Shown one piece after another: positions 9,301-64,000 of a stretch of 64,000 nucleotides of DNA (positions are counted from its first letter, which is position 1; the number at the start of each line of letters is the position of its first letter). The notes below the pieces were generated by a model. The model did not search any database. It saw only the letters and a list, made by a program, of their open reading frames with translations, and was not told the DNA's origin. This stretch comes from an uncultured Gammaproteobacteria bacterium (GTDB lineage: Bacteria > Patescibacteriota > Patescibacteriia > 2-01-FULL-39-33), in assembly GCA_964512625.1 (NCBI GenBank), contig CAZEKG010000001.1, positions 217,413 to 281,412 of the forward strand, given 5' to 3'. The position numbers were made by a program, and so were the translations under genes.

Positions 9301-9428
9301 AGCTTTTTTAGGGAAAACTCCCTGATTTTTTTCTCTTTCGGAGATTGTTCTTCTTTAGCAGGAGTGATTTCCTGAGCTGTCTTCTCAAGCGAGAAAATCG
9401 ATTTTATTTTCGGGTTTTTTTCCGGCAT
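6363..9428 (-). CDS. DGR target protein: MoxR-like AAA+ ATPase with C-terminal variable (CLec/FGE-like) domain; no signal peptide
   Basis: Walker A VLEGQSGTGKTTLAKAV, Walker B/sensor VFIDEANKAEDIG (the DEaNrA pattern of MoxR/AAA_5), and a coiled-coil N-terminus. The C-terminus ...DGSVPDGIWFSDASQLVLDGDVVDAHSRSGFRFSVR is encoded by the VR. Confidence 0.8.
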   Translation of the reverse strand: MPEKNPKIKSIFSLEKTAQEITPAKEEQSPKEKKIREFSLKKLREKGPEAKAEALWSFWQSFKDSWLEYIKEKRESGDSQSLALMDIFDDENPLTQEFKSRLENARILSLLKEMYSDEETRLVYEQGMKKYAEQWASVNGNWPKYQELRNDEDIWEEEEAQLQKKRFEGLRQGREKGAVLEELAIASSAMAENKARQAELLAKNPDLAARAVFSELKELKEQLDGPDHFMWTKSRHKILEAIEDAVASANTLRMVVLEGQSGTGKTTLAKAVAQLFTGEAPIIKEADERMKVDRELLADKNLRGGTDYGPVLYGLTGKKTADQASPEHQGLAVFIDEANKAEDIGTLATLCDRLRSGEPTGYSTNGADPKDLVLSKAIVLGAQNPAGSRFRRTSYTPEIQRKMKMIPVEYFPQSAENPELFETFLVALMDDSNRIQANKAELGPIYNEKHKEENGKNITEEVLDGDPKAGGELWRLAQALSQAYENLYGRDNILSRGNPEALISGSVLTPGDIFLWLKEYRLLAREGKSLKSFLSEKLVEWLETAFTADDYLEDKDLYIKLFAEYGLIAGGGNAKLEPLAGPKISLDIITDKELAQLSPRVPRKAEIKDNTPAAPEYADEFIDYGGKKRVKVSLDKVAAPKGRYVSPDKAGEDLTFTFVGLIKECAKFPELKGKWLVESGKGDREIIDSLDELERLHGNYQFTVFNAKNPYHEAFKEAGIIDQANNPEQQDLEVDLQEILSKDRRAYQEVTFWLDRNMAGHLPENMEDFNLSEEDIELIGSRMELGEIPLFVPGRLAQIKGLKTAIEKLKPRFKKDGQEGQVADTYLWDYIDSLISFMEKIAGKPDMTIKEKDKLKAEIAPFLKAGEDPELLFQAVLSIPESPYISLITPSQSPEERTKNKALGAQKAEFEKIKQEFIDLNEGITLEMVNITSIAEYLILQNRFTDRVLEAKALNDLVPLDDYRRTGGTFSRFIDLPVASDGSVPDGIWFSDASQLVLDGDVVDAHSRSGFRFSVRIPRKI
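6381..6501 (-). repeat. DGR variable repeat (VR), 121 bp, covering the last ~40 codons of the target gene
   Basis: See TR. The VR ends 15 nt before the stop codon. A single non-A mismatch (TR C vs VR T) lies 5 nt from the 3' end, in an IMH-like position. Confidence 0.85.
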
Positions 9429-9530: not shown

Positions 9531-11180
9531 TTATTGATTCAGCCGATTCTTCCCCGCCTCGACAAGCCCGGCAAAAAGCGGATGAGGCCGGAGAGGCCGA
9601 GACTTGAATTCCGGATGGAATTGAACGCCAACGAAAAATGGATGAACACCCTTAGGTAATTCGACGATCTCAACTAATTGCCCATCCGGCGAAGTCCCGG
9701 CGATAACCAAGCCGTTACTCTTCGCCATTTCCAGATAATCATTATTGAATTCATACCTATGGCGATGGCGCTCTATAATATTTTTATCTTTATAAAGACT
9801 AAAAGAAATCGACTCTTCGCTAAGAACGCAAGGATAAGCTCCTAAGCGCATCGTATTACCATATTGATTCTTCGCCAGCCTCTCTGCCTGCTCCGGCATG
9901 ATATGAATAACGGGATTAGTAGTCTCTTTATTTATTTCGGTCGTATTAGCATCTTCAAGACCGGCCGTATGGCGCATAAATTCAATCGTCGCCAATTGCA
10001 TACCGTAACAAAGCCCGAGATAAGGAATATTATTTTCCCGCGCGAACTTAATAGCCAAGATCTTCCCCTCTACTCCCCGCGAACCAAAGCCGCCAGGAAC
10101 GACTAAACAATGATAATTATTCAACTCACTTACTTTTTCCGGCTCCTTCTCATAGATATCTGAATTGATCCATTCGATTTCCGGCTGAACCGATTGATGC
10201 CAACAAGCGTATTTCAAGCTTTCAATGACTGAGATATAAGAATCAGAAAGAACGAAGTCCCCCGTTTCAAAATATTTTCCGATAATGCCTATTTTCAGTT
10301 TCGAACCTTGGTTTTTAGTTTTCTCAACAAACTCCCGCCACTGATTTCCATCCTTAAGCTTCGGCTCCAAGCCGAGATCAGCCAGGATCTTATCCGATAA
10401 GCCTTCTTTCTCAAAATTAACCGGAATATCATAAACGCTCTCTACATCGGGCGCAGAAATAATATGGTCTTTTTTAACATTACAAAATAAAGCCAACTTC
10501 TCCTTCCGAGGCTCATCGATCGGATGAGTCGAACGGCCAAGAATGAAATCAGGCTGAATACCGACATAGTTAAGCTCCCGTGAAGCCATTTGGGTTGGCT
10601 TCGTCTTCATCTCGCCGATTTTTGATGGTACAGGAAGATAACTAACAAGAACGAAAAGCACATCATTAGGCTCCCTAAGATGCATCATCCTAGCCGCTTC
10701 TAAGAATAAAGCGTTTTGATATTCGCCGACCGTTCCGCCGATTTCAATCAAGGTGATATCAGCCTCGGCTTTTTTCGAGGCCCGCTCAATCCTTTCCATG
10801 ATTTCATAAGGAATATGAGGAACCGCCTCGACGCATTTTCCGCCATACTCAAGATTGCGCTCCTTATTAATAACCGAAAGATAAACGCGTCCGGTTGTCA
10901 TATAATTATCGCGGAAAATATTAACATCGAGAAAACGTTCGTAATTGCCAATATCCTGATCAGTTTCATCGCCGTCTTCCGTGACAAAAACCTCCCCATG
11001 CTCGACCGGATTCATAGTCCCAGCATCAACATTAAGATAAGGATCTATTTTAACCGCCGTTACTTTAAAACCTCTTTCTTCAAGTAGCCGGCCAATCGAA
11101 GCGCAAGCAATTCCCTTGCCGACTCCTGACATAACCCCGCCGACGATAAAAATATATTTCTTTTTTTTCTCACCTTCCAT
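9531..11180 (-). CDS. pyrG: CTP synthase
   Basis: N-terminal KYIFIVGGVMSGVGKGI...; C-terminal glutamine amidotransferase domain; full length 549 aa. Confidence 0.95.
   Translation of the reverse strand: MEGEKKKKYIFIVGGVMSGVGKGIACASIGRLLEERGFKVTAVKIDPYLNVDAGTMNPVEHGEVFVTEDGDETDQDIGNYERFLDVNIFRDNYMTTGRVYLSVINKERNLEYGGKCVEAVPHIPYEIMERIERASKKAEADITLIEIGGTVGEYQNALFLEAARMMHLREPNDVLFVLVSYLPVPSKIGEMKTKPTQMASRELNYVGIQPDFILGRSTHPIDEPRKEKLALFCNVKKDHIISAPDVESVYDIPVNFEKEGLSDKILADLGLEPKLKDGNQWREFVEKTKNQGSKLKIGIIGKYFETGDFVLSDSYISVIESLKYACWHQSVQPEIEWINSDIYEKEPEKVSELNNYHCLVVPGGFGSRGVEGKILAIKFARENNIPYLGLCYGMQLATIEFMRHTAGLEDANTTEINKETTNPVIHIMPEQAERLAKNQYGNTMRLGAYPCVLSEESISFSLYKDKNIIERHRHRYEFNNDYLEMAKSNGLVIAGTSPDGQLVEIVELPKGVHPFFVGVQFHPEFKSRPLRPHPLFAGLVEAGKNRLNQ
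9553..9591 (+). repeat. 39-bp direct repeat, copy 2 (inside the pyrG 3' end; encodes RPHPLFAGLVEAG)
   Basis: Exact match to 905-943. Confidence 0.8.
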
Positions 11181-25915: not shown

Positions 25916-26854
25916 ATGGCTCCCAAAAAAACTCCAGTTGCGATGCCGGCTTCTATGCCTTCCATCCCAACTAAAACCGTCAGCCAGTCTAAAATCCTCC
26001 AGGCTCTTGGCTTAGCGGTTGTTGCCGTTGCCGGCTTAGCTTTCTTCGGCTCGGTTTTAATGAACAGCATAATCGGCCTCCAACCGAAACCAATCATCTC
26101 TGCTGTTAATGTTTCTAATTACACTCCGGTTTTAGCTGACGGAACTATTACAATTTCTTGGATCGCTCAAAATGCTAGCCAATATCTAGTTCAATACCAG
26201 AAAACTGGGGGAACTAACGATACTAGGATCGCCTACTCTCCGCAAATCACTCTTAGATTAATGGATTTACCTCTCGAAATTCCTTTCAAGGTCAAAATCA
26301 CTCCGAAAACCTCAAACTGGTTCAATCCTATTTATGGTTCTCCCGTTTATACTCAAGATATTACTATCGGCAAGTTGGCTACCCGCCCTTGCAGCAATCA
26401 ATGCAAAGTCGGCGATGTGAATTGTGATGGATTAACCGATTCTAAAGACCTAAGTATCGCCAACACTATACAAGCTTCCAACCTTTCTATTACCGATAAT
26501 AATCGATGTGCAGATGTTGATAATAGTGGTAAATTTGATGTTACAGATTGGCAAAAAATCAGCAATGTAGTTACTCTTGGCCATAACTACGGCAATTGGC
26601 CGTTTATCGCCACAACCACCTCAACAACAACCCTCCCGATTCTTGGACTTATTTGCCCAAATAGAATAAAGGGCGATGTTAATGGCGATGGCAAAGTTGA
26701 TGCTTTAGATATTCAATTAGCTATAAATATTTCATTGAATACTGCCTCCTTAAGAAACTACCCTTGCGCCGATCGAAATAACGACGGACTAGTCAATAAG
26801 ATGGATATAGATGTCTTAGTTAATTGCATTTTGTCTCTAGAAACTTGCAAATAA
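25916..26854 (+). CDS. secreted Fn3-like + dockerin-repeat protein
   Basis: Signal/TM segment. Four Ca-binding dockerin-type repeats (DVNCDGLTDSKD, DVDNSGKFDVTD, DVNGDGKVDALD, DRNNDGLVNKMD). Confidence 0.6.
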   Translation: MAPKKTPVAMPASMPSIPTKTVSQSKILQALGLAVVAVAGLAFFGSVLMNSIIGLQPKPIISAVNVSNYTPVLADGTITISWIAQNASQYLVQYQKTGGTNDTRIAYSPQITLRLMDLPLEIPFKVKITPKTSNWFNPIYGSPVYTQDITIGKLATRPCSNQCKVGDVNCDGLTDSKDLSIANTIQASNLSITDNNRCADVDNSGKFDVTDWQKISNVVTLGHNYGNWPFIATTTSTTTLPILGLICPNRIKGDVNGDGKVDALDIQLAINISLNTASLRNYPCADRNNDGLVNKMDIDVLVNCILSLETCK

Positions 26855-33268: not shown

Positions 33269-33495
33269 CCCTATTCTTCTCTCTATATCAAGTACCTATT
33301 CCGTCGTCGTCTTCATAAACAGGCTTATTGAATTCCGGAGGCAAGTCGTCTTCCTCGCAAAACTCATCAAGCCGCATATCAGGAGGAGCGAAAATACTAG
33401 CCAAAAAAGAAAAACCAAATAAAGAGCCAGTAAGAAAGAACAAACCAAGTATTCCATACCCGCACCCCCATATATTGTGAAGTTTTCAGAACAAG

Positions 33496-33577
33496 TGCCC
33501 GAGGTGAGACTCGAACTCACACACCTTGCGGTACACGATTTTGAGTCGTGCGCGTCTACCAATTCCACCACTCGGGC
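33496..33577 (-). tRNA. tRNA-Leu (anticodon CAA), long variable arm
   Basis: Acceptor GCCCGAG/CTCGGGC, anticodon loop CTCAAAA, long extra arm, T-arm GTGAG-TTCGAGT-CTCAC. Confidence 0.75.
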
Positions 33578-33597
33578 AATTTTAAATTAACAACGAT

Positions 33598-33672
<75 letters not shown>

Positions 33673-33699
33673 GTAAAATAGTTTAAAAAGTCAAAAGTC

Positions 33700-33775
33700 C
33701 ATAAGGTCGAAAGTTAAAAGAAAATGCGGAAACTTAGATTCTTTATGGACTTTTAACTTTATGGACTTTTGACTT
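33700..33775. repeat. 16-bp perfect inverted repeat (agtcaaaagtccataa / ttatggacttttgact) plus a local direct repeat of tggactttt between two tRNA genes
   Basis: Read directly from the sequence. Confidence 0.7.
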
Positions 33776-33781
33776 GTTTTG

Positions 33782-33854
33782 TTGCGGGGACAGGACTCGA
33801 ACCTGTGACCTTCGGGTTATGGGCCCGACGAGCTGCCAACTGCTCTACCCCGCG
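33782..33854 (-). tRNA. initiator tRNA-fMet (anticodon CAT)
   Basis: C1xA72 mismatch, three consecutive G-C pairs in the anticodon stem (TCGGG-CCCATAA-CCCGA), T-arm ACAGG-TTCGAGT-CCTGT. Confidence 0.75.
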
Positions 33855-45603: not shown

Positions 45604-48600
45604 TTAAGGCGTCAAGCCTTCTTCCGGAGGAGTCTCGACTATAACAGTCGAATTATCAGCCGGCGTTTCAACGCTGACAGTCGGCTCTTCGACAATAGGC
45701 TCAGAAGGCGTTTCTAAAGCCGGCGGCTCAACTTCAGGATCAGTACTACTTGAGACAGTCTCTTCAGGCATACTGGAAGAGGCTTCGGTACTTGAGCTAA
45801 CAGACACCTCGTTATTATTTCCGGACTCGGTCGAATTACCGGAAGAAACATCAATTGAATTATTATTATTTTCACCGCCGATAACTTCCCCAACATTCGA
45901 TTGATCACTTGAGGAAGCGTAATTAAACCCGTCAACCGCTAAAGCGTGCCAACCAAACTCGATGTCGCTAGAAAAAATCGGATCAATATTAAGCCTGAAG
46001 CCAGTCTTTGATTCTTCACTAATCCAATAAGTTGAAGGTTTGATATCGTTTCTCGGGGTAGCGGTAATGATTGGGATCCAAAGGTATTCTTTCGAGAAAT
46101 TAACTTCCGTCGAAGTGGCTCCGGCTAAAAGCTTGACAATTCCGGCCATATCGCGATTAAAGTAAACCTGATCCTTAAAGACGACTTTAGAGGTAAAGTT
46201 AGCCTCGCCAATAACGGTTATACTGCCGACAAAATCAGCTTCCTGGTTAACGGTTATACGGGCAAAAGAAGCGTCCGCAGTAACAGTTATAGGAGCATTA
46301 AATTCTTGAGATTCCTTAAAAGTAAAAGAATAAAGAACTTCCCGTTTTCCAGAACTAGAAGTCGACGAACTAGTTGAAGCGCTTCCGGAAGAACTATTAG
46401 CAGATACTTCATTTTCAAGAGAAGAGCTATTTCTAATTAACATCATGATCTTTCCAGTTGAGCCATTAAAGTCTTCAAGCGCTACACCAATAATACCGAC
46501 TGAGCGAGCAGTCGCTTTCATGGCATGACCAAGAGTGTCGGAAGTCGTCAATAAATCACCCGCTTTAATCGAGCCATTTTCTCCCGAAACCTTAACCGGA
46601 ATACGACCGGCCAAACCAATTCTTACAGCATCATCACCAGCGTTTTCGGCGCTCATAACTACGCCTGGATCAGTTGTTACCGCTCCTAAGACTCTTGAAT
46701 CATAACTCTTACTACTTAAGGTAACTTTTTCTTCGCCAGCCGCAATTAGAACATCACCTTCTTCCGGTTTTTGGCCGATATATTTTATCCACTCAGCGAT
46801 ATCAGAAGAATTACTAACGACGCCACCGGCAGTATATACCTTGCCCCTACTCCAAATACCGATACTGGCAGTAGAAGTTGTATCGACATATAAACCGTAA
46901 CCGGTTTGCTGAGAACCAATAGTCAAACCATGCGTAAGAGTTGAAGTAGCAATAGCAACTTTAGTAGTACTTACATACATAGCAACTACCCTATTAGATC
47001 CGCCTCCAGTAGCAGCATAATCTTCCTTAAAAATCCTTAATAAGCCGCCGTTAGCATCAATATTCCATAAATTGCTTTTATTCGAAGCGGGAAGAATCAC
47101 TCTAGTATCAATTCTAGCTTCACCAGCAACATGAAGACGATTACCAGGAGTAGTAGTTCCGATGCCGACGTTACCACCCCCCTGAATAGTCATCAAATTA
47201 TTCATCACTCCAGCATTAGTATAATCATATAATCTAAAACCTCCGATATTTCCTCCAGCTCGATTGGAAACTAAATCAATCTCTCCTTCGCCCCCTGAAT
47301 AATTCCAACCAGTAAGTAGTTTTCCTGAACTTTGCAAAGGAACTAAAGAATATCCTGCTGTCGGATCCATATTTTTACCTGCGACAATAAGACCTCCTGC
47401 GCCATTCACATCTAATTTTCCACTAGGTGCTGTTAGACCAATCCCCACATTACCAGTACTAGCAATAGTCATTTTATTGGAATCATTAGCAAAGAAATCC
47501 AAATAACCTGTTCGAACACCAAAACCATAAAAATCAGAAGTACCGTCATAAACGGCCAGCTTCTTAGCCGTAACATCAGTACCCAAAGACAATTTAACCA
47601 GAGGCGCATTAGTTCCAGTCCCGACTCCCAAATACCCAGCTGAACTAATAGTCATAACATTACCGGTTCCAAGAGAAGAAGTAGCGATAGTAAAATAATC
47701 ACTAGCAGACACATCATTGCCGATTGACCATTTAAGGACTCCTGATTTCCTAAACTCCATAACACTATCTCCGCCGGCGGCAGCACCAACAGCTAAATTG
47801 CCTGTCGTCGTTACATTGCCGCTAGTGTCGATAGTAAAGTTATTGGCACTGCCGACAGTAAATAGTTTTGATGGAGTTGTCGTTCCGATACCGACATTAG
47901 TTCCATTATCATATAAGACTCCCGTACTTAAGGTATTAGCATCGCTCCAACGTGCCACATAACCAGCAACACCAGTCATAGCAGTAAAGGCCCCTGTACC
48001 ATTACCTTTTACAACACCAGTTAAAGTACTTGCTCCAGTACCGCCATTAGCAACAGATAGGACAGTTCCTGACCAATTACTATTATTTATTGTATTTAAA
48101 ACCGCTAAAGATCCGAGGCCTAAATTAGTTCTTGCTCCAGCAGCTGTAGAAGATCCAGTACCCCCATAAGCAACGCCAATAACTCCACCTATCCATGTTC
48201 CTGAAATATTACCGGAAACAACCAAATTACCAGAAGTTGTTGCATTCGTTACCTGAAGACTGCCAAGAGTCATTGCACTAACCGTACCAGTTAAGTTAAT
48301 GGATGGTGCCGTTAAAGATATAGCTTGAGTCGCCGACAAATCAACATTGGAGTTGGTTCCATTAGCATTAATACCAATACTAGAACCATTGCCGTTAGTT
48401 TGAATAGTAAGCCCATGACTATTGCCAACTGTTTCCATGGTTAAATTCGTACCTCCAGTCATTGTTAAGGTAGAACTACTATTCATATTTATACCGCCAC
48501 TGCCAGTATTAAACAACTGCAAGGCGCCATTGATCGTATTAAGTTTTAAATTCTGACCGGTATCAGCATAAAAATTCAAATTAGTCGCATCACTAGTAAT

Positions 48601-50997
48601 AACCCTTGTTCCGTTCATATAAAAGGAGTTACCACTAGTATAGATATGATCAGCATACAAGGCGCCCGAAACCGTCAAGGTTGTCGTTGCTGAATAAGGA
48701 GTTGAGGTTCCGATCGTAGTTATGTTTGGTAAAATAGTCATACCTGATCCGGAAGGCTGAAGAGTAATATTCTGATTCGAACCGCCGGCCGTAAAAGTAA
48801 GAGCGCCGGTTCCAGTAATCGAACCATTATTGCTTCCCGTACCGCCATAAGGCACTCCGACAATCGTACCATTCCAAGTGCCTCCGGAGATAACTGCTCC
48901 GTTAATCGTCCCAGTAACGCTAAGATTGCCGCCGACGCTTAGGTTGGCATAAATAGAGGAGGTACCTGTCGGTCCATTAACGGCCAAGGTACCGCCAATA
49001 ACGGCGCCATTATTCAAAGTCAAAGAACTGAATTGAGGACTGGCACCAGTTCCAATGTTTTGGACAGTATCAAGCTGGCTGCCGCTAACCATTAAATTGC
49101 TAGTATTAAAACTAAGACTTAATTGCCCGGTTGTTGTAGATAGTTGTAATGGACTAACGGTATTAAAAGCCGACCTAGCTCTAACATCAGTAAAATACAA
49201 ATTAGAAACTTCCGGAATATTAGAAGTATTTAAATCGACAGCCCCAGAAAAACCGTTAACAGAAGTAACACTAGCCCCTTGAAGTAACTCAACCCAATCG
49301 CTGGATGAGGTAGCACTGTTTCCCTGGAGAATATAGGTCTTATTAAGGGAAGAAATAACCGCCACATCCCCCTTATTAGCGCTTAAATTAAGCATGGATG
49401 AGGTCGTATTGGTTACGAAAGTATTATTCAAAGGTACGGAGCCGATTTGAGAAGTCGGAATCTTGCCATTAGAATCAAGTGTAGCTAAGCCATTAACTTG
49501 GCCCTTTTGTAGATCTATCCTAGCATCGGCGCGAGCATTCGTATAATAAAGATTTGTTACTCCCTCCCCTATATCATCCGTATCAATAAGAATCGAGCCA
49601 TTAACCGGAAATACGCCATTAACTTCCCTAACCGAAGCCATAGGAGAGGAAAGCTCGATCCAATCTCCAACCTGACTACAGGGTGCCGTTTGCAAAACGA
49701 AAGAAGTGCTACTAGCCGAAATAATGGCCACATCACCTACCGTCAGCGTACTACTTGAAGGTCCGGAACAAAGATTGACCATTTCCTGGGTTGTTGAAAC
49801 GACATAAGTATTACCAATAACGATAGATGACAACTGAGAAAGAGGGATCTTACGATTAGCTCCTAAAGTAGCCAAGCCATTCGCCTCACCTTTCTGAAGT
49901 GAAATCCTACTATCAGCCGCCAAATTAGCTCTCGTATCCGTATAGTATAAATTAGAGCCCTCCGTTAAATTAGAAGTTGATTTTAAAGCAAAATTACTAT
50001 TGAAATTAGAAGTATCTCGAGCATCGGTATAATAAAGGTTCGAGCCTTCCGCTAAATTAGAAGTTGATTTAGTCGCTAAGTCAGCATTAAATAAAGTTGA
50101 AGAATAATATTTATTAGTAGATCCTTGAGCTAGATCGTCTGTCGTTTTTTGACTAAGGAGAGTATTAAAACTACTAGTTGCTCGAGCTGAAGTATAATAA
50201 AGATTCGATCCTTCAGTTAAATTAGAAGTACTCTTAAGAGAAAAATTACTATCAAAATTGGTTCCGAAAGCCCACCAACTCGAGGTCGCATTAAAAGCGT
50301 CATTCCAAGCATTATTAAAACCAACACCAGTTAATGAGCCGTTAATAACTGCCGGCCCGTTAAATGTCGAAGTTGCGGTAACTGTTAATTTACCCTGAGA
50401 AAGAATATCAGCGGTCGTCGTTACGCCGTTTAGCGTCATTCCACCAACAGAATCCATAACCATGATTTGATTAGCAACGGGAGTTGTCGTCGCCTTAAAA
50501 CCGCCCAAAGTTTCCGAGTTAAAAGCGTAAGGCGTAGCCGTCAGCTTTTTCCTCGGCGTAAAAGCTTCCTCAAAAATTCCGTTATTATCCGTATCTAAAT
50601 AAACTTGGAGATAAACGGTGCTATTGGCACTAAAAATATCTTGAGGGAGCGTCGAAGAAGCGCCTAAAGTGGCAGAAAAAATACCGTTACTAACGCTGAC
50701 TGATTGGGTTTCCGACCAGGAACTTATCGGACTACCGCCGGAAGAGGTATTGTAAAGCTCAAACTTAAAGCTTAGGGGCGTAGAAGTTACGGCCTGACCA
50801 AGGGAATTAATTAACTTACCTTGATAGGTTATTTCGCGATTTATATCTCCAGTTAAGGCCTGAGAAATCTTCTTTTGGCCGTAAATACCAATAAACAAAA
50901 GGATAAAAATAAAACTAAAAAACAAGCAAGTAAAATAAAATCTTCCTCTTTTTTGATTAGAATTGTTTTTTTCGGTTTGTTTTAGACTAGAAAGCAT
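45604..50997 (-). CDS. giant (1797 aa) cell-surface fibre-like protein with tandem repeats
   Basis: N-terminal TM anchor. About five tandem copies of ...KSTSNLTEGSNLYYT(D/S)AR... GVPYGGTGS / VANGGTGAST motifs. Ser/Thr/Asn-rich. Pro/Glu-rich C-terminal tail. Confidence 0.7.
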   Translation of the reverse strand: MLSSLKQTEKNNSNQKRGRFYFTCLFFSFIFILLFIGIYGQKKISQALTGDINREITYQGKLINSLGQAVTSTPLSFKFELYNTSSGGSPISSWSETQSVSVSNGIFSATLGASSTLPQDIFSANSTVYLQVYLDTDNNGIFEEAFTPRKKLTATPYAFNSETLGGFKATTTPVANQIMVMDSVGGMTLNGVTTTADILSQGKLTVTATSTFNGPAVINGSLTGVGFNNAWNDAFNATSSWWAFGTNFDSNFSLKSTSNLTEGSNLYYTSARATSSFNTLLSQKTTDDLAQGSTNKYYSSTLFNADLATKSTSNLAEGSNLYYTDARDTSNFNSNFALKSTSNLTEGSNLYYTDTRANLAADSRISLQKGEANGLATLGANRKIPLSQLSSIVIGNTYVVSTTQEMVNLCSGPSSSTLTVGDVAIISASSTSFVLQTAPCSQVGDWIELSSPMASVREVNGVFPVNGSILIDTDDIGEGVTNLYYTNARADARIDLQKGQVNGLATLDSNGKIPTSQIGSVPLNNTFVTNTTSSMLNLSANKGDVAVISSLNKTYILQGNSATSSSDWVELLQGASVTSVNGFSGAVDLNTSNIPEVSNLYFTDVRARSAFNTVSPLQLSTTTGQLSLSFNTSNLMVSGSQLDTVQNIGTGASPQFSSLTLNNGAVIGGTLAVNGPTGTSSIYANLSVGGNLSVTGTINGAVISGGTWNGTIVGVPYGGTGSNNGSITGTGALTFTAGGSNQNITLQPSGSGMTILPNITTIGTSTPYSATTTLTVSGALYADHIYTSGNSFYMNGTRVITSDATNLNFYADTGQNLKLNTINGALQLFNTGSGGINMNSSSTLTMTGGTNLTMETVGNSHGLTIQTNGNGSSIGINANGTNSNVDLSATQAISLTAPSINLTGTVSAMTLGSLQVTNATTSGNLVVSGNISGTWIGGVIGVAYGGTGSSTAAGARTNLGLGSLAVLNTINNSNWSGTVLSVANGGTGASTLTGVVKGNGTGAFTAMTGVAGYVARWSDANTLSTGVLYDNGTNVGIGTTTPSKLFTVGSANNFTIDTSGNVTTTGNLAVGAAAGGDSVMEFRKSGVLKWSIGNDVSASDYFTIATSSLGTGNVMTISSAGYLGVGTGTNAPLVKLSLGTDVTAKKLAVYDGTSDFYGFGVRTGYLDFFANDSNKMTIASTGNVGIGLTAPSGKLDVNGAGGLIVAGKNMDPTAGYSLVPLQSSGKLLTGWNYSGGEGEIDLVSNRAGGNIGGFRLYDYTNAGVMNNLMTIQGGGNVGIGTTTPGNRLHVAGEARIDTRVILPASNKSNLWNIDANGGLLRIFKEDYAATGGGSNRVVAMYVSTTKVAIATSTLTHGLTIGSQQTGYGLYVDTTSTASIGIWSRGKVYTAGGVVSNSSDIAEWIKYIGQKPEEGDVLIAAGEEKVTLSSKSYDSRVLGAVTTDPGVVMSAENAGDDAVRIGLAGRIPVKVSGENGSIKAGDLLTTSDTLGHAMKATARSVGIIGVALEDFNGSTGKIMMLIRNSSSLENEVSANSSSGSASTSSSTSSSGKREVLYSFTFKESQEFNAPITVTADASFARITVNQEADFVGSITVIGEANFTSKVVFKDQVYFNRDMAGIVKLLAGATSTEVNFSKEYLWIPIITATPRNDIKPSTYWISEESKTGFRLNIDPIFSSDIEFGWHALAVDGFNYASSSDQSNVGEVIGGENNNNSIDVSSGNSTESGNNNEVSVSSSTEASSSMPEETVSSSTDPEVEPPALETPSEPIVEEPTVSVETPADNSTVIVETPPEEGLTP

Positions 50998-57282: not shown

Positions 57283-57296
57283 ATTCTTACTCGAAA

Positions 57297-57326
57297 CTCC
57301 CGCTTCACGGCGGGGGTTTTGTTTTT
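57297..57326 (+). terminator. rho-independent terminator after the infC-rpmI-rplT operon
   Basis: cccgcttcacggcggggg followed by ttttgttttt. Confidence 0.7.
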
Positions 57327-57336
57327 CTCTTTGAAA

Positions 57337-57365
57337 TTGACTATTACAATATAGTGCCATATAAT
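57337..57365 (+). promoter_or_regulatory. perfect consensus sigma70-type promoter (TTGACT-N17-TATAAT)
   Basis: Direct read: ttgact attacaatatagtgcca tataat, 44 nt upstream of the XRE gene's ATG. Confidence 0.6.
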
Positions 57366-57408
57366 AATCTAGGTCATATAGAACATTCAATCAAGGAGAA
57401 GAAGAATA

Positions 57409-57657
57409 ATGGGAATAAAACCCGTCGCAGTGGGAGCTTCGGCTTCCATCGTTAAATGCCTTAAGCAGTTAGCCAAAGACAAGAAATTGACCCAAGCCGT
57501 AATGGCTAAAAGATCAGGCCTTCGACAGCCTACGATCAGCAACATGTTTACAGGAAAAACAATCCCTAATCTCGACACTTTTCTAAGTCTATGTCGGGCT
57601 ATAGGCCTCAAACCTTCGGAGGTTTGCGAGCTAGCAGAGAAGAAAACTAGAACCTAA
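57409..57657 (+). CDS. XRE-family helix-turn-helix transcriptional regulator (82 aa)
   Basis: LTQAVMAKRSGLRQPTISNMFTGKTIPNLDTFLSLCRAIGLKPSEV. Confidence 0.75.
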   Translation: MGIKPVAVGASASIVKCLKQLAKDKKLTQAVMAKRSGLRQPTISNMFTGKTIPNLDTFLSLCRAIGLKPSEVCELAEKKTRT

Positions 57658-57713
57658 GCGGGAAACCAAGATCGGCGACCCGCTCTTTTAATTCAAAAAT
57701 AAAAAGTCGGGTA

Positions 57714-58079
57714 TTAAAACCCGACTGCGCGCAAATGGAATTCCTCAATCACTTTTCTTACGGCCTGAGGCGTCTTGTCGATATGGATAACTCCCAACTC
57801 TTCCATCTCGGACGATCTTACGGAAGAAATCGAAAAAAGACTAAGAGTAGTCTTATTCTCGACAAGCTCTCTAGCTACTTCCAGGCCATCGTTACCGTGG
57901 CCAAGATCGTTATCTAAAAACACCGCTACTAAGTTGGGATGTTTATCTATTTCCGCCAAAACCTCCTCTTTTGATCGGCACCTTTTGATCAAGACCCTTT
58001 CGTCCCTACTGAACAAAAGAGCAAATGACGTCACTATCGGTTCATAGTCATCGACGAGCAAGAACTTAATTAAAGGCAT
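57714..58079 (-). CDS. single-domain response regulator (CheY-like receiver)
   Basis: LLVDDYEPIV...LVAVFLDNDLG...: acidic pocket and the phospho-acceptor Asp context. Confidence 0.7.
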   Translation of the reverse strand: MPLIKFLLVDDYEPIVTSFALLFSRDERVLIKRCRSKEEVLAEIDKHPNLVAVFLDNDLGHGNDGLEVARELVENKTTLSLFSISSVRSSEMEELGVIHIDKTPQAVRKVIEEFHLRAVGF

Positions 58080-58236
58080 TGATCGAATCCCCCTTGCCTA
58101 TTTTTTCCGACTAAAGAACGAGAATTTCATTTTATCAAAAATATTAAGATAAGTCGAAATATAAAAATTAAAGAAAATAAAGACCGGACAAGCATATTAG
58201 CTCATCCGGTTGATAATTTAGATTCTCTTTTCCGCC

Positions 58237-59334
58237 CTAAGGCAGGATGGAGAAATCAACTTGCCACATGACATTGCCATCAGAGGTGGCTTTGGTAACT
58301 TGGGCGGCCGTTCCGCTCGCTCCCGCCTCGACATAGTCAGGGTTGACGAACAGCCTGTCAGAACAGTTGTTCGTCTGAAAGAAGAAGTTAACAAAGAAGG
58401 TCGAGCTGTCGACAACTACTGTCGTCGGCTGATTTCCCCAGTCAACTCCGCTTCCCGTAAAGGTCAAGATTGTCGTATCGCCGTCTTGAGTGACAGTAAC
58501 ATTCTTAACCTCGAGAACGGTCCAAGGCGCCGAGGAAAGTTTACAGTAAATCCCGATTGCGGTGATATTACTGTAGCTAGTCCCCTGCGGTAAAACTCCC
58601 GGGTTACTCAAGATACTGGCCAAAGCCGCACCGTGAGCGTTGAAAACGACGGAATAAACCGCTTCCCCGGCGTTGTGTGTGACCGTAAAAGTCGCTGGTA
58701 CGGTCGCCGCGGGTAAAACAGTTAAGACGCCCGGCGTCGATTCAATCGGCGTATTGATACCGTCGCTGGCAACGCAGGTATAGGTCCCGGCGTCGCCTAG
58801 CGTCGCCGAAGTAACACTGTAGTTAGCCGAGGTCGCTCCCGTAACCGCGACTCCGTCTTTCTTCCACTGGTATGAGACAGTACCCTGTCCCGTCGCCACA
58901 ACGGAAAAGTCGAATGGCTGGCCGACAGTCTTACTCAGCGCCGTCCAGGGCTGAGTCGTAAACCGCAACTGGTCGTAAATGACCAAGTTGCAAACCGCGC
59001 TCTCCCGACTAATTCCCGAGCCGGTACTGGTTACTACGCATTTGTAGTTTCCAGCGTCGGTAAGGGCAACGGACGCAATACCGTAAGTCGCCGAATTGGC
59101 GCCTACGATATCAGCTCCTTCCTTCTGCCACTTGTACACAAATGGTCCCGTTCCAGAGACCACCACGCCTAGGTTGAGAGTTTGGCCAACAAACCGAGTT
59201 ACCGTCGCCGGTGGCGAGGAGTCAAGGTTGGGCGGCGTATGAACCATCAAGAAAACCGAGGGCGAAGGCACAACCGCCGCTAAAGCCGCCTGGCAGACAA
59301 CCAGGCAAAAAACCAATAGCATCATCTTTTTCAT
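58237..59334 (-). CDS. secreted protein with two Ig-like (I-set-like) domains; lies in the GC-rich segment
   Basis: Signal peptide. Repeats FVYKWQKEGADIVGANSATYGIASVALTDAGNYKCVVTS and VSYQWKKDGVAVTGATSANYSVTSATLGDAGTYTCVASD. Confidence 0.7.
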   Translation of the reverse strand: MKKMMLLVFCLVVCQAALAAVVPSPSVFLMVHTPPNLDSSPPATVTRFVGQTLNLGVVVSGTGPFVYKWQKEGADIVGANSATYGIASVALTDAGNYKCVVTSTGSGISRESAVCNLVIYDQLRFTTQPWTALSKTVGQPFDFSVVATGQGTVSYQWKKDGVAVTGATSANYSVTSATLGDAGTYTCVASDGINTPIESTPGVLTVLPAATVPATFTVTHNAGEAVYSVVFNAHGAALASILSNPGVLPQGTSYSNITAIGIYCKLSSAPWTVLEVKNVTVTQDGDTTILTFTGSGVDWGNQPTTVVVDSSTFFVNFFFQTNNCSDRLFVNPDYVEAGASGTAAQVTKATSDGNVMWQVDFSILP

Positions 59335-59567
59335 CGATTCAACCTCCTCCCCTCATCGGGGCTTGTTACTAAACATACATTCAGACAGAACAAGACAAAG
59401 TAACTTACCATATATCTTTATTTATGTCAATATATTTTAAGTTATTTTCTTATTTTTTAGCCTATTTTAGATATTATATATTAACTCCCAAAGAAATTTA
59501 AAGAAAATAAAAAGCGGGCTGTATTTCAAGCCCGCGAGGTGTAAAAAAGTACTGAGATCTTTGTCGT

Positions 59568-60308
59568 TTACGGCAAGGTCGCCGTTACAACGCAACGCCA
59601 ATAACCGCCATCAGCCGCGCTGATTTGAGCCACGCTGAGTTGGTCGCCGGTCAGGACCGCAGTCCCGATACTGGCGCCAAGATCGCCGTTATTGATATTC
59701 GTCCAATTCGTGTTGTCTGGCGAATGCTGCCACTGGAACGTGTAAGTCGTCCCAGCCTGGCCGCCGGAAGGCGTGGCTGTGAGAGTCATCGTATGCGGAT
59801 AGGTAGCATTGCCGTCCGGATACGGATTGACTGTCGTATTGTCGGCCATGACGGAAACCGTCGGCGCCGCATAAACGGTCAGCTGTGCCGAGTCCGAAGT
59901 CAAGCTAACGCCCGACCCGCTATTGGTCGTAATCACGCAACGGTAATATCCCGCGTTACCAAGGACGACGGACGGCGCGTTATAGGTCGCGGCTGTCGCA
60001 CCCACAACATCGTTAAACGTAACGTTGTCGGATGAGTATTGCCACTGGTAAACCAGGGCGGGTCCGGTCGCCGAAATTGAGAAGCCAGCCGGGTCGCCGA
60101 CATAGGCCGCCGTACTCGTCGGTTGCGCCGAAATGTTCGCCGTGCCATTGACGGTAATCAAAACCGCATTCGAATTGACCGTAACAGCAAGCGCCGGGAA
60201 CGACCCGAAGGTCATGGCAATCGCGAGAACCGCGGTCAACAACACTTTCGAAAGCTTCTGCTTCTTCATGAGTTCTTCTCCTTCTCCCGATATCCTCGGG
60301 AATTCCAT
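59568..60308 (-). CDS. secreted protein with Ig-like domains; lies in the GC-rich segment
   Basis: Signal peptide. YQWQYSSDNVTF...AGYYRCVITT... GGYWRCVVTA. Confidence 0.65.
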   Translation of the reverse strand: MEFPRISGEGEELMKKQKLSKVLLTAVLAIAMTFGSFPALAVTVNSNAVLITVNGTANISAQPTSTAAYVGDPAGFSISATGPALVYQWQYSSDNVTFNDVVGATAATYNAPSVVLGNAGYYRCVITTNSGSGVSLTSDSAQLTVYAAPTVSVMADNTTVNPYPDGNATYPHTMTLTATPSGGQAGTTYTFQWQHSPDNTNWTNINNGDLGASIGTAVLTGDQLSVAQISAADGGYWRCVVTATLP

Positions 60309-60344
60309 ATGCCTTTCGAATTGAGAGACGCTCCCCCAACTCGA

Positions 60345-61934
60345 TCATTCCACAGTCAGAGATTTCGTCTGCCCGGCAGAATCAGTTACCGAACAGATAT
60401 AGGCTCCCGTATTACTACTTGAAGCCTTGAACGAGAGAGTTGAGTTGGAGCCGACCGGTTGGCCGACTCGCTTCCAAGCGAAACTATAAGGCGGAATCCC
60501 GCCCCAAGCCTCGCAAACAATCTCCACGGTTGTTCCCGAAGAAACTGTTACCTGACTTTCATCAGGATAGCCTCTAACGTAGATTCGCGCCTTGAGCGGG
60601 TAGCTCACTGACGCGAAATCAATCAGGAAAAGACCGTTCTCCACTCTCGCTTCCTGTCCGTTGACCATGAGTTTCAGAAAGTTATGGTTGAAGCCATAAC
60701 CCTGAGTCCCCTGGCCCGTATAAGACAGGAGATCGAGATAGAACTTGGAGTTCCGATTAAGAGCGAGGCTAACCGGCGAACCGGCGCTGTTCACTCCTTG
60801 CGGACTCAGGTCAATCTCGATCTTGGGAGTAGAACCTAAAAAGTTGACTGTCCAGGCCTTGAAGATCCCCTCACTCTCGTTACCCAAAGCGTTCGGGTAA
60901 TAAGCAGCCTCGAAGATCTTGACATTCGACCAGGGCCAACCTGTACTCCAACCCAGCAAGATTTCCTCCGGTTTCTTCCCTGAAAGGTCGAAGGAGAAAT
61001 GGAAGCTGCCGCCCGGCGTCCCATCGTAAGTTAGGTACGCTGTCGTTTGTTCCACTTCAGCCGGAACCGAGAAGCTATCCGTCGGACTTGAGCCGTGGTT
61101 TAACTCGAAGAAGTCGCTGAACCCGTCCCCGTCCGTATCGATCTTCAAAGGATCCGTCTTATGAAGATGCTCCTCAAGGTTACTCAGTCCGTCCTTATCG
61201 GCGTCCTGAGTTGCATCGCCGGAGTTCAATGGGTTTAAGCCGTAACGAATTTCCCAACCGTCAAGCAAGCCGTCATCATCAGAGTCGGCAACCGTCGGAT
61301 TGGTATTCTTCGAATTCTCGGTGATGTTGTTGGCGCCATCGCCATCAAAATCACCGTAGGCTCCGTTTACTCCGACCGCACTATTAGGATCCAGTCCGTA
61401 CTGGATTTCCCAAGTGTTCGGCAGACCGTCGCCATCGACATCATTACTGCTCGGCGTTCGCCGTTTCAGCACGATATTTCTGACCTCAAACTTGCCGTTA
61501 GCGAGAGCGACTTCAAGTTTCATCGTCGCCGTTTGGAAGCCAAACGGAAAAGAAACATGAAAAACGAAACCGTCCGCCGTATTCTCGTAGGTCGTTTCCG
61601 AGGAAGTTTTCACTTCACCGTCATTGACAACAACGACAACCGGCGTCCCCGATCCAGTCGAATACTCGACAGTCAGAAGCGGATTACAATCCACGACCTT
61701 ACCGTCTTTCTTCTCCTGGACCAAGAGATCAAGAATCTTCCCTTCGGTTTCGATGACTGCCGGGTTATCCGTAACCTCGACATCAGTCGAAACCGGATTT
61801 CCCGCAAAGTCGTACAAACTGGCGAAAACCGCCAGCGTGTATTGAGGCGGCGGCGAAGGCGAAGGACAGCCCGTCAGGCCGGCCAAAGCCAGAAAAAACG
61901 CCACCATAAGCCACCCACTAATCCTACTCTTCAT
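60345..61934 (-). CDS. lipoprotein with thrombospondin type-3-like Ca-binding repeats and a C-terminal Ig-like domain
   Basis: Lipobox LALAGLTGC. Repeats DVDGDGLPNTWE, DFDGDGANN, DSDDDGLLDGWE, DADKDGLSNLEE, DTDGDGFSDFFE. C-terminal PYSFAWKRVGQPVGSNS...GAYICSVTD. Confidence 0.7.
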   Translation of the reverse strand: MKSRISGWLMVAFFLALAGLTGCPSPSPPPQYTLAVFASLYDFAGNPVSTDVEVTDNPAVIETEGKILDLLVQEKKDGKVVDCNPLLTVEYSTGSGTPVVVVVNDGEVKTSSETTYENTADGFVFHVSFPFGFQTATMKLEVALANGKFEVRNIVLKRRTPSSNDVDGDGLPNTWEIQYGLDPNSAVGVNGAYGDFDGDGANNITENSKNTNPTVADSDDDGLLDGWEIRYGLNPLNSGDATQDADKDGLSNLEEHLHKTDPLKIDTDGDGFSDFFELNHGSSPTDSFSVPAEVEQTTAYLTYDGTPGGSFHFSFDLSGKKPEEILLGWSTGWPWSNVKIFEAAYYPNALGNESEGIFKAWTVNFLGSTPKIEIDLSPQGVNSAGSPVSLALNRNSKFYLDLLSYTGQGTQGYGFNHNFLKLMVNGQEARVENGLFLIDFASVSYPLKARIYVRGYPDESQVTVSSGTTVEIVCEAWGGIPPYSFAWKRVGQPVGSNSTLSFKASSSNTGAYICSVTDSAGQTKSLTVE

Positions 61935-62120
61935 CTTCGTTCCTCCATCCCGCTTATAAAGCGGTTATGTTGCAAAATCCAAACTAAGTTTTCAAACATT
62001 CATGGCCGGAAACCATTCCTGCCAACGACATAACTTACAACAATTTCAATAATTTGTCAATACCCTTAAAATTATCCTTATTTTTTTCTTAATTTAGACT
62101 TTTTATGGGTTATTTTTAAG

Positions 62121-62160
62121 GGAAAATAAAACGACGCCATTTCATGCGGAAATGACGTCT
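62121..62160 (-). terminator. rho-independent terminator downstream of purC
   Basis: 11-bp arms gacgccatttc / gaaatgacgtc (one mismatch) around the loop atgcg, with a T-run on the minus strand. Confidence 0.5.
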
Positions 62161-62193
62161 TAAGTGTTAAATTCCAAGATAACGGGCTATCAC

Positions 62194-63120
62194 CTACTCT
62201 GACAACGCCAATGACATCGCCTGATCGATGGAAAATCCCTGAACTAGCCGCGCAACCAAAGCGTACTTTTCCTCGACTTCGCTCAAGTCATGACAATCGC
62301 GGAAAAGCTGTTTTGAAAGCTCTTTCCATTCTCGATCGCGGACTCGCCAGCTATCGTTGTCGATAACATCAGCGACGAGAAGCTCCCCATTCGGCCCGAG
62401 GCCAAACTCAAGCTTGAAGTCGATGAGCCGACAGTCAAGTTGAGCCCAAGCGCCCTCAAGAACGAGGAAGACATCGCGAGCGATTTCTTCGATTTGCTCG
62501 ACAGTAACCCCTGTCGACAGGATCGCTTCCCGATCGATATAGAAACCAAGACTCCAGCCATCGGCATAACTCGGAAGCTTCGGATGAACTGGTCTCCACG
62601 ACCTCACATAAGGATCCAAGATAAGCGGGTCGTCAATGTGACGATCGTTCTTCGGATCAATCGGGGTCTGACCGATTTTCTCGCCGCAAAAACTAGTAAT
62701 CCTGCCCCCCGTCGTCTTCAAGAAGAGCTCGAATTCCAGTCGGTCGAACCGGTAAGGAGGAGAGCCTGATGGCGTCGCCAGCTGCGGATTCCGATTGAGA
62801 TAACTGCCGACGGCGTAACGCCTGACAACAACTTCAAGGGGAATCATCTTGCAGTTAGGGACTAGGAACTCCCTTTCCGAAAGCTGCCTATGAAAGGCGA
62901 CGGGCAATTCCGCTTCCTTCAGTAGTTGGAAAACCGCACAAGTCGTGGCGGTCGCGTGCTTAGCTTTTGAGGACATTTCCCTGGTCGCCGATGGGTCGTC
63001 ATTTTTCGTAATGGCGTCCATGTTTTCGACGATTAGAGCTGTCGGATCTCCCTCAACCTCGTATAAGACCTTCGTCTTTCCCTTGGCAATTTCGCCGCCT
63101 CTTATTATTATATTTACCAA
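62194..63120 (-). CDS. purC: phosphoribosylaminoimidazole-succinocarboxamide (SAICAR) synthase, long form
   Basis: KGKTKVLYEVEGDPTALIV...DAITKND; MIPLEVVVRRYAVGS (compare yeast ADE1 LIPLEVIVRGY). Confidence 0.75.
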   Translation of the reverse strand: MVNIIIRGGEIAKGKTKVLYEVEGDPTALIVENMDAITKNDDPSATREMSSKAKHATATTCAVFQLLKEAELPVAFHRQLSEREFLVPNCKMIPLEVVVRRYAVGSYLNRNPQLATPSGSPPYRFDRLEFELFLKTTGGRITSFCGEKIGQTPIDPKNDRHIDDPLILDPYVRSWRPVHPKLPSYADGWSLGFYIDREAILSTGVTVEQIEEIARDVFLVLEGAWAQLDCRLIDFKLEFGLGPNGELLVADVIDNDSWRVRDREWKELSKQLFRDCHDLSEVEEKYALVARLVQGFSIDQAMSLALSE

Positions 63121-63224
63121 AACGACCTCCTTTTCCGGGCTTAGCCCGACCCGACACTAAAACACTAAAAACGAGCAATGCAAAGATAAGTTAACAGGAA
63201 AGAAATAAAAAGTCAACCTCAACC

Positions 63225-63962
63225 CTAACCCTTAACCGCCTCAACCGCTAAGCTTTCTAAGGGCATTCCCTGATATTGTTTCTTACTTATCTCTTTGTTT
63301 TCATTTAAAATATTAACTTTAAAACCGACTGATTCGATTATTCTTAAATATTCATCTCTCATCAAAGCGCCAGCTACGCACCCAGCTAAAAGCGCTTCAT
63401 CGTTTTTCTGACCTTCCGTCAAATCCCCTAAAAGGACGATATCGGATAAATAAATCCGGCCGCCTGATTTTAAAACTCGAAAGGCTTCGCGGAAAACTTT
63501 CTCTTTATCGGGCGCTAGATTAATGACGCAATTGCTGATTATGATATCGATCGATTCATCATCAACTGGTAATTTTTCAATATCGCCCAATCTGAATTCC
63601 GTATTATTATAATTATATTTTTCTGCATTAGCTTTAGCGCGGGCAATCATCTCTTCCATCATATCAACGCCGATAACCTTGCCACTCGCGCCGACTTTCT
63701 TGGCCGCTAAAAAAGCGTCAAACCCGGCACCGCTGCCAAGATCTAAAACAATGTCGCCTTCTTTTATTTTTCCAAGAGCGATCGGATTGCCGCAACCGAG
63801 ACCGAGATTGGCTTCAGGAACGGCATTAATTTCTTCGTCCGAATAGCCGATACTCTTAGAAATGTCCTTGGCACTCTTACAGCCGCAACCGCAACTTGAT
63901 TGAGAAACGGCAATACCGGCATAGCTATCCTTAACGATCTTTTTAATCTTATCTGAATCCAT
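63225..63962 (-). CDS. arsM: arsenite S-adenosylmethionine methyltransferase-like (ArsM) SAM-dependent methyltransferase
   Basis: Cys cluster [61 protein letters not shown] matches the ArsM core. Confidence 0.7.
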
Positions 63963-64000
63963 ATTTAATGGTTATTAATTAGGTTTTATTACTATAGCAA

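Follow-up and report, generated by a model that had tools for sequence, protein, structure and literature searches.

The window analysed here is a stretch of 64 kb (64,000 nucleotides) of bacterial chromosome, and this report deals with a segment of it at positions 58237 to 63120, which encodes three surface proteins with immunoglobulin (Ig)-like domains and a stand-alone phosphoribosylaminoimidazole-succinocarboxamide (SAICAR) synthetase, PurC. Judging from sequence similarity the chromosome belongs to a Buchananbacteria-like member of the candidate phyla radiation (CPR, Patescibacteria). Its initiation factor IF3 is 57-65% identical to those of eight loci from metagenome-assembled genomes (MAGs), five of which are labelled Candidatus Buchananbacteria, and the identity to the Ca. 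Buchananbacteria MAGs is 62-65%. All four genes of the segment are co-directional, as an earlier reading of the bare letters (the sequence-only reading) had stated, and lie on the minus strand. Domain searches also bear out the gene content given there, namely secreted Ig proteins, a lipoprotein with five thrombospondin type 3 (TSP3) repeats and an Ig-like domain, and purC, with weaker evidence for the middle protein.

In the direction of transcription the first of the three surface-protein genes (60345 to 61934, minus strand) encodes a lipoprotein of 529 aa with a predicted lipobox (LTG-C), an N-terminal domain, five TSP3 repeats, an unassigned middle domain and an Ig_2 domain (residues 460-529). 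As read from the sequence, the lipobox is MKSRISGWLMVAFFLALAGLTG directly before the cysteine and fits the pattern [LVI][ASTG][GA]C; the orthologue in the metagenomic locus L001 has LLCG at the same place before its cysteine. The DxDxDG repeats start at residues 165, 195, 217, 244 and 266 and span residues 165-277. Both domain assignments exceed the Pfam cut-offs (TSP3_bac, PF18884: 3.2e-19, 68.8 bits, cut-off 25; Ig_2: 8.5e-10, 39.2 bits, cut-off 27). A DxDxDG array in a lipid-anchored surface protein is also found in CglD and MtsD of Myxococcus and in Amuc_1099 of Akkermansia, whose NCBIfam models match the lipoprotein at 1e-12 to 2e-08. In contrast to members of these families, however, the lipoprotein stays under the respective cut-offs (47 compared to 800, 43.4 compared to 50 and 32.5 compared to 400), its similarity is confined to the repeats, and it has no VWA domain and different flanking domains.

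The middle gene (59568 to 60269, minus strand) encodes a secreted protein of approximately 233 aa with a Sec signal peptide and two divergent Ig-like domains. The mechanically derived open reading frame (ORF) extends to 60308 and would give 246 aa, a form that is absent from the protein collection. The start is probably Met14 (MKKQKLSKV...) at position 60269, because residue 1 of the orthologue in a second metagenomic locus, L170, aligns to this position. With Ig_3 the protein reaches 1.2e-06 and 29.3 bits, just under the curated cut-off of 30, and it matches PHROG 3995 at 7e-21.

The third gene (58237 to 59334, minus strand) encodes a secreted protein of 365 aa composed of a Sec signal peptide, two I-set-like Ig domains (approximately residues 40-205) and a C-terminal domain (205-365). 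The Ig domains are recognized by the Pfam models Ig_3 (4.6e-17, 62.7 bits, cut-off 30) and I-set (6.5e-12, 45.8 bits, cut-off 23.7). The C-terminal domain of 161 residues is conserved and all-beta and has no Pfam match. In a HMMER scan of 1.84 billion protein representatives it occurred in only 12 clusters, whose members are mostly 345-365 aa long and carry it at the C-terminal end in all cases. An AlphaFold 2 model computed from a 13-sequence alignment has a mean predicted local distance difference test (pLDDT) score of 83.8; this alignment was used instead of an earlier one of 3 sequences, with which the C-terminal domain had stayed below a pLDDT of 50. The model is a string of beta-sandwiches with helices only in the signal peptide and one further short stretch, and its best Foldseek matches are the Ig arrays of titin, sidekick, contactin and the phage protein Hoc. 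Altogether the three surface proteins contain five Ig-like domains and no enzyme domain.

The tandem I-set-like domains with their W...DxGxYxC core resemble those of phage Hoc and of Ig proteins from the Planctomycetes-Verrucomicrobia-Chlamydiae (PVC) group, and this is reflected in both the Foldseek and the PHROG matches (Hoc, titin, contactin). Read as the remnant of a phage or prophage, the segment would consist of Hoc-like Ig decoration or tail proteins together with purC as an auxiliary metabolic gene. Matches to the tail protein family phrog_3995 (2.5e-31), the Hoc-like family phrog_2973 (3.2e-29) and the purC auxiliary-gene family phrog_1112 (4e-22) are in agreement with this, as is the XRE-type regulator that adjoins the segment. 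These matches are, however, limited to the Ig domains or to the generic PurC fold, the window contains no capsid, terminase, portal or integrase gene, and a lipoprotein anchor and Sec signal peptides fit cellular surface proteins. In contrast to the phage and PVC-group proteins the secreted proteins of the window are short (two Ig domains) and without a phage context, the set is always encoded together with the TSP3 lipoprotein, and one of its members has the C-terminal domain of the 12 clusters. Because scans of IMG/VR (2.9 million contigs) with the 365-aa protein and with the PurC of the window revealed no relative of either, the phage explanation was dropped; we consider it very improbable.

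Promoter-like sites of the form TTGACA-N17-TAAGTT are found by direct reading upstream of the lipoprotein gene (62032 to 62060, minus strand) and upstream of the 365-aa gene (59402 to 59430, minus strand), with identical hexamers and identical spacing. The site at 59402-59430 escaped a consensus scan, whose rule accepts a -10 hexamer only with A in the second and T in the sixth position and with a minimum of matches. The lipoprotein gene and the middle gene are separated by a terminator-free gap of 75 nt in the window, and their counterparts in L170 overlap by 4 nt. Hairpins resembling intrinsic terminators follow the middle gene (59514 to 59535, minus strand; GCGGGC...GCCCGC, then TTTTTATTTT) and the 365-aa gene (58183 to 58210, minus strand; 11 pairs with the T-run tail CTTTATTTTC). 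A further hairpin of this kind, followed by GTTTTATTTT, is located 35 nt past the stop codon of purC (62133 to 62159, minus strand), and purC is therefore a transcription unit distinct from the three surface-protein genes, which are called the cassette in the following. Minus-strand genes on either side of the segment borders share one terminator style, in which a hairpin precedes TTTTTATTTT or a closely similar sequence (57705-57726, 58183-58210, 59514-59535, 62133-62159 and 63202-63215), so that the style cannot distinguish host from segment.

Composition of the segment

The GC content of positions 58237-63120 is 51.2%, compared to 40.3% in positions 1-58236 and 40.8% in positions 63121-64000. 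In a 1-kb profile the region from 58 to 63 kb lies at 49-52% and the remainder of the window at 32-48%. The sequence-only reading had noted a GC-richer segment at these positions between flanks of low GC, and both observations hold, as the XRE gene, the receiver-domain gene and arsM on the two sides all have a host-like GC content. Its estimate of 52-58% GC applies inside the coding sequences only (0.50-0.58 in windows of 300 nt), not to the segment average of approximately 51%. Only 35-41% GC is found in the two longer spacers, located at approximately 59.3-59.6 kb and 61.9-62.3 kb.

This bias is more prominent at third codon positions. The GC content there (GC3) is 0.615 in the 365-aa gene, 0.664 in the middle gene, 0.587 in the lipoprotein gene and 0.579 in purC, which is 3.5-5.3 standard deviations (SD) higher than in the other 44 ORFs of the window (0.410±0.048, maximum 0.492). 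Relative synonymous codon usage (RSCU) correlates with that of the host genes at only 0.10-0.34 for the four genes, compared to 0.74±0.12 (minimum 0.43) for host genes themselves. The tetranucleotide usage of the segment, normalized for base composition, correlates with the rest of the window at r=0.63, which is below every host window of 4.9 kb (0.93±0.06, minimum 0.67). The excess in GC3 is not an amino acid effect, because a 1797-aa protein of the host chromosome, probably a large surface protein, has a similarly high GC content at second codon positions (GC2 0.50) and yet a GC3 of only 0.32. The segment is a compositional foreigner in the host chromosome.

Distribution of the cassette and origin of the segment

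Full-length relatives of the 365-aa protein with 43-45% identity (P0123, P0124) led to further copies of the whole gene set. The order of a TSP3/Ig protein of approximately 516-520 aa, a protein of 231-247 aa and one of 362-365 aa recurs in L001 (Logan SRR3330206) and in a Joint Genome Institute (JGI) contig of 15,980 bp. It is also present in L170, L171 and L172, where the first gene is interrupted by the contig end in all three. These three loci carry P0308, a cluster-mate of the representative P0297; P0308 occurs on seven contigs, and the three inspected ones originate from three different runs. The contigs with the cassette belong to Logan SRR3330205/6, SRR24750906, SRR24319152 and SRR24750916 and to JGI 3300075153. 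Between the window and L001 the identities are 32% for the lipoprotein, which is homologous along almost its entire length (484 aa), 28% for the middle protein and 44% for the 365-aa protein; between the window and L170 they are 27% (partial first gene, 237 aa), 38% and 43%, respectively. The three surface-protein genes thus form a conserved cassette, with copies in no fewer than three further metagenomic lineages.

In both the window and L001 the cassette has GC-rich coding sequences, AT-rich spacers and a TTGACA-N17 site before the first gene, which in L001 reads TTGACA-N17-TATAAA. A second promoter-like site precedes the third gene in the window, where it lies in the AT-rich spacer; in L001 such a site precedes the gene that comes after the cassette. 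Hairpin terminators with T-runs follow both the second and the third gene in the window, and in L001 the third gene is followed by such a terminator. Two further candidates were rejected as relatives. P0178, the top-scoring match to the lipoprotein, shares the TSP3 repeats only and lies on a kinase-rich contig of 59% GC, and P0249, a TSP3 protein of similar length from Patescibacteria, shares the repeats only and is not a cassette orthologue. A scan of genome contigs with the 365-aa family found none, which is a weak negative since the scan depends on peptide patterns. A metagenome scan was dominated by generic Ig-domain proteins, none of which covered the C-terminal domain well.

The neighbours of the cassette are unlike one another in each lineage, that is in the window, in L001, in the JGI contig and in L170-L172. 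The cassette thus acts as a self-contained unit and seems to move between lineages. In L170 (1-12788), from another low-GC and CPR-like lineage, it is followed by a GT4 glycosyltransferase gene and a type IV pilus cluster (PilB, PilC, pseudopilins, PilM, PilN), a proximity that is reminiscent of the pilus-like locus of Amuc_1099. Here again a step in composition is observed. GC3 is 0.45-0.55 in the cassette compared to 0.29-0.415 in the eleven adjacent GT4 and type IV pilus genes, whose GC content is approximately 39%, and the step coincides exactly with the end of the third cassette gene.

This recurrent step bears on the chimeric join in the metagenome assembly that the sequence-only reading had offered as an alternative. 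Approximately 5 kb of a GC-richer organism would then have been spliced into a low-GC contig. The switch in composition at each end is indeed abrupt, the 284-kb contig comes from a MAG, each of the four proteins is a singleton, and sequence could be shared between the host and a GC-richer relative present in its sample. However, a chimera would take two misjoins, as the composition is that of the host again on either side, and both would fall in non-conserved AT-rich spacers and not in shared conserved genes. The cassette is a coherent, conserved operon pair, and the equivalent GC step at its edge in the unrelated lineage of L170, L171 and L172, from independent assemblies of three different runs, is a strong argument against misassembly. 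We consider a chimera improbable.

A more serious objection is that the genes might be native and their GC-rich codon usage intrinsic, due to selection on expression or mRNA or to recombination-associated biased gene conversion in fast-evolving surface genes. The GC content of the cassette is above that of its neighbours in both low-GC genomes in which this can be tested, the window and L170, with copies just 27-43% identical; the RSCU of the L170 cassette correlates with its own flank at 0.59; and fused purCE genes lie on the high side of their neighbours' GC3 in three out of three CPR loci (0.8 to 2.6 SD). In contrast, the low RSCU correlation of the window genes with their host is accompanied by a resemblance to other genomes (0.70 with L001), and the large host surface protein of comparable GC2 has a low GC3. 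purC is no outlier in L166, L168 and L173, the neighbours of the cassette change at every locus as would be expected for a mobile unit, and in the Buchananbacteria relatives searched the approximately 5-9 kb past L20 contain no gene of the segment. An intrinsic bias therefore appears unlikely to us, if less so than a chimera.

The codon usage also gives a hint towards the donor. The RSCU of the window cassette correlates at r=0.70 with that of purC, at 0.70 with that of the L001 cassette and at 0.52-0.63 with L164, a locus that carries the second-best PurC homologue. For purC itself the correlation is 0.70 with the cassette and 0.34 with the host, which is compatible with a common origin of purC and cassette. 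L001 and L164 correlate with each other at 0.78-0.79. In tetranucleotide usage L164 agrees with the Buchananbacteria locus L084 (r=0.95), L001 with L086, L090 and L164 (0.77-0.79), and the flank of L170 with the window host, L164 and L084 (0.74-0.80). The most likely reservoir is therefore found among GC-richer CPR relatives and not in the PVC group, on a compositional and not a phylogenetic basis. To this extent the donor, which the sequence-only reading had called unknown, can tentatively be narrowed down.

The taxonomy of the best matches could be taken to point elsewhere. Named partial matches to the Ig domains come mostly from Verrucomicrobia and Opitutaceae (30-38% identity, extending over approximately the Ig half of the 365-aa protein), while those of PurC come from CPR. 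One may accordingly think of a real transfer in which the cassette came from a bacterium outside the CPR, for example of the PVC group and maybe the physical host of the epibiont, with purC as a case apart. The closest TSP3 match, L003, lies on a contig of 59% GC with many PAS/GAF histidine kinases, which is not CPR-like. All these matches, however, cover generic Ig domains or TSP3 repeats only, and full-length relatives with the specific C-terminal domain are restricted to the 12 clusters. The known contexts of the cassette are low-GC type IV pilus genes (L170) or a Buchananbacteria-like tetranucleotide usage (L001), and purC, which shares the codon usage of the cassette, is clearly of CPR type. 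There is little probability for such a donor in our view, about as little as for a misassembly.

Overall, the observations are best explained by a horizontally acquired islet of approximately 5 kb composed of the cassette and purC, with a GC-richer CPR relative as donor, and we regard this as fairly probable. It corresponds to the horizontally acquired island of the sequence-only reading, which is preferred here on account of the outlying composition and the recurrence of the cassette in varied contexts (L001, the JGI contig and L170-L172). The limits of the islet would lie within 58080-58236 and 63121-63224. It shares with known horizontally acquired adhesin islets the atypical GC content, codon usage and tetranucleotide usage, the sharp intergenic borders, the self-contained operon with its own promoters and terminators, and a context that varies by lineage. 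It differs from them in having no integrase, tRNA target or clear att repeats, in its reduced CPR host, and in its probable donor, another CPR lineage.

Several points weigh against a transfer of this kind. The cassette copies are 27-47% identical and yet GC-elevated in both low-GC genomes; elevation despite such divergence could instead mean a bias intrinsic to the genes. The taxonomy of L001, L164 and L170 is one of compositional similarity, the best named partial matches of the Ig domains are those to Verrucomicrobia and Opitutaceae, and the contiguity of the junctions is that of the assembled sequence. No integrase, transposase or tRNA gene is found at the borders, the nearest tRNA gene being approximately 24 kb away. 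As to flanking direct repeats, only the 9-nt repeat AAGATAAGT was found, with its left copy (58146 to 58154, plus strand) between the receiver gene and the cassette and its right copy (63183 to 63191, plus strand) between purC and arsM, in the intergenic spacer in both cases. It is the exact core of a 27-nt match of 70% identity (58146-58172 and 63183-63209, spacing 5037; family D7). By a rough estimate such a match would arise by chance in AT-rich spacers in approximately 5-20% of cases, and as an islet boundary the repeat is a weak candidate that could easily be due to chance.

A clean empty site, too, is not among the nearest genomes. The block of a 185-aa gene, an AI-2E permease gene and the genes for SmpB, IF3, L35 and L20 is syntenic in most of the related loci L084-L091, whose GC content ranges from 34 to 48%. 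Synteny stops directly past rplT, the gene for L20, and within approximately 5-9 kb downstream of it the relatives searched have none of the XRE gene, the receiver gene, the four islet genes and arsM. These flanking genes are located at 57409-57657 (XRE, GC3 0.45), 57714-58079 (receiver of the cREC_REC type, GC3 0.49) and 63225-63962 (arsM, NF008823 at 319 bits). Within 57283-58079 the XRE and receiver genes have a GC3 close to or equal to the highest host values, and they may be part of an older stretch of variable DNA next to the islet.

The PurC protein

The gene purC (62194 to 63120, minus strand) has a TTG start and encodes a stand-alone SAICAR synthetase of 308 aa, which resembles PAICS and ends at the linker that joins PurC and PurE in fused CPR homologues. 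With Pfam PF01259 (SAICAR_synt) it reaches 133.7 bits at a cut-off of 20, whereas it scores only 81.6 with TIGR00081 (cut-off 189.9) and remains far under the cut-offs of NF010568 and NF009251. As the Pfam threshold is passed and those of the NCBIfam equivalogs are not, the protein is a member of the PurC family but not the canonical bacterial equivalog. It can be aligned with its CPR homologues along the entire PurC domain and keeps every column that is invariant in 16 of them (for example GKTK 14-17, LEV..RRY 95-102, D234-K236-E238 and ADVIDNDSWR 250-259). To judge from these residues, the catalytic and ligand-binding core appears to be retained.

We found 4792 homologues at E≤1e-3. The best 119 of these, self excluded, are 50-62% identical, and the named ones among the best (55-62% identity) are from Moranbacteria, Falkowbacteria, Peregrinibacteria, Paceibacterota and 'Patescibacteria'. 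Approximately 85-90% of the best homologues are fusions of PF01259 and PF00731 of about 440 aa (PurC-PurE), and approximately 12 of the top 120 (about 10%) are stand-alone. The PurC of the window has no C-terminal 5-aminoimidazole ribonucleotide (AIR) carboxylase domain (PF00731), and no PurE-like frame or remnant follows downstream. On this comparison it reads as a PurC typical of CPR from which the PurE partner has been lost.

Of the proteins with a solved structure, human and insect PAICS come closest. The PurC domain is closest to the N-terminal domain of PAICS (human ADE2, PDB 2H31; 8.6e-32), and the CPR homologues share with it the order of PurC followed by PurE; in contrast to PAICS, the window protein is bacterial and has no PurE domain at all.

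CPR genomes commonly encode the fusion of about 440 aa (L164, L166, L168), sometimes adjoining purB and purH: in L166 it lies between purB and purH and in L168 beside purB, and in L164 and L173 there is no pur neighbour. This suggests that CPR bacteria with a PurC-PurE fusion retain only the late steps of purine synthesis, from AIR to inosine monophosphate (IMP); literature searches on late-step purine genes in CPR gave nothing specific. L173 carries a stand-alone PurC of 315 aa in a Patescibacteria genome of 61% GC, with native composition and no pur gene within approximately 8-10 kb on either side.

The sequence-only reading had regarded a lone purC as unexpected in a CPR genome. This does not stand, because the named family members are CPR and stand-alone copies such as that in L173 recur. 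The expectation has to be corrected to the effect that a PAICS-like PurC, in most cases fused to PurE and often with purB and purH as neighbours, is common in CPR. It had also been proposed there to look for other pur genes in the genome; this was done for the 64-kb window, which contains no purE, purB or purH. purC is not within the conserved cassette elsewhere (L001, JGI contig), and its GC3 is 3.5 SD over the host genes, compared to only 0.8-2.6 SD over the neighbours for purCE in three CPR loci.

Proposed function and other elements of the window

In mechanistic terms, the islet would be read as a promoter followed by the lipoprotein gene (five TSP3 repeats and Ig), the middle Ig gene and a terminator, then a second promoter with the 365-aa Ig gene and its terminator, and, as the other part of the islet, the separately terminated, PurE-less purC of CPR type (PAICS-like). 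The lipoprotein may be anchored in the membrane and bind Ca2+ through its five TSP3 repeats, and the two secreted Ig proteins could assemble on it or act beside it. Together the three proteins might serve as a module for Ca2+-dependent adhesion or cell-cell contact, with the C-terminal domain of the 365-aa protein as the likely ligand-binding tip. A membrane-anchored complex stabilized by Ca2+ would be the most economical mechanism. One must keep in mind that adhesion and Ca2+ binding are read from the domain families, which counts among the points against our interpretation. PurC would convert carboxyaminoimidazole ribonucleotide (CAIR), aspartate and ATP to SAICAR, a reaction that would be of use only where the genome has purE, purB and purH elsewhere or intermediates are imported.

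How CPR epibionts recognize their partners and attach to them is described as largely unknown, with type IV pili in Saccharibacteria as the only well-studied factor (PMC11623550). Our literature searches on Ig/TSP3 adhesins in CPR gave nothing specific. The cassette, being rare, conserved and apparently exchangeable, is a concrete candidate for the means by which members of an uncultured CPR class attach. One may speculate, with a probability that we would put on the low side, that CPR lineages exchange it as a mobile attachment module, which may determine or change the host cell or surface to which the epibiont is bound. This would explain the foreign composition, the fast divergence, the rare C-terminal domain and the adjacency to pilus genes in one lineage. 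As a kind of surface-protein set the cassette is undescribed but conventional, and nothing about it is categorically new. The islet may illustrate how genes enter a reduced CPR genome and is otherwise an ordinary case, a small genomic islet of surface proteins.

The window is in other respects ordinary chromosome, with genes for ParA/ParB, TopA, DprA, MetRS, RelA/SpoT, Pth, PyrG, L9, MurA, SmpB, IF3, L35 and L20. Three tRNA genes (Leu-CAA and two Met-CAT) are clustered in 360 nt at 33495-33854. A complete diversity-generating retroelement (DGR) is located at 4526-6501. It is composed of a reverse transcriptase gene (4526-5572, minus strand; RVT_1), an accessory ORF resembling bAvd (5511-5975; a weak match of 34 bits at a Pfam cut-off of 40), a template repeat (TR, 5914-6034) and a variable repeat (VR, 6381-6501) in the 3' end of a gene for 1021 aa (6363-9428). 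All 13 of the 13 differences between TR and VR are at TR adenines. The DGR was rejected as a cause of the peculiarity of the Ig genes, as this only TR/VR pair of the window is approximately 52 kb away and targets another gene.

A direct repeat of 42 nt with 98% identity (902-943 and 9550-9591) brackets 8.6 kb in which the DGR, an AbiEii toxin gene and a transglutaminase-like gene for 845 aa are located. Its right copy forms the 3' end of pyrG (CTP synthase), and the pair resembles an att duplication such as an integrated element would leave; no integrase gene was seen there. The ORF for the 1797-aa protein mentioned above (45604-50997) has no Pfam match and contains degenerate repeats of approximately 82 nt at 49923-50256. 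At 25916-26854 a protein of 312 aa is encoded that has a dockerin type I domain at its C-terminus, a kind of domain that one would not expect on a CPR chromosome.

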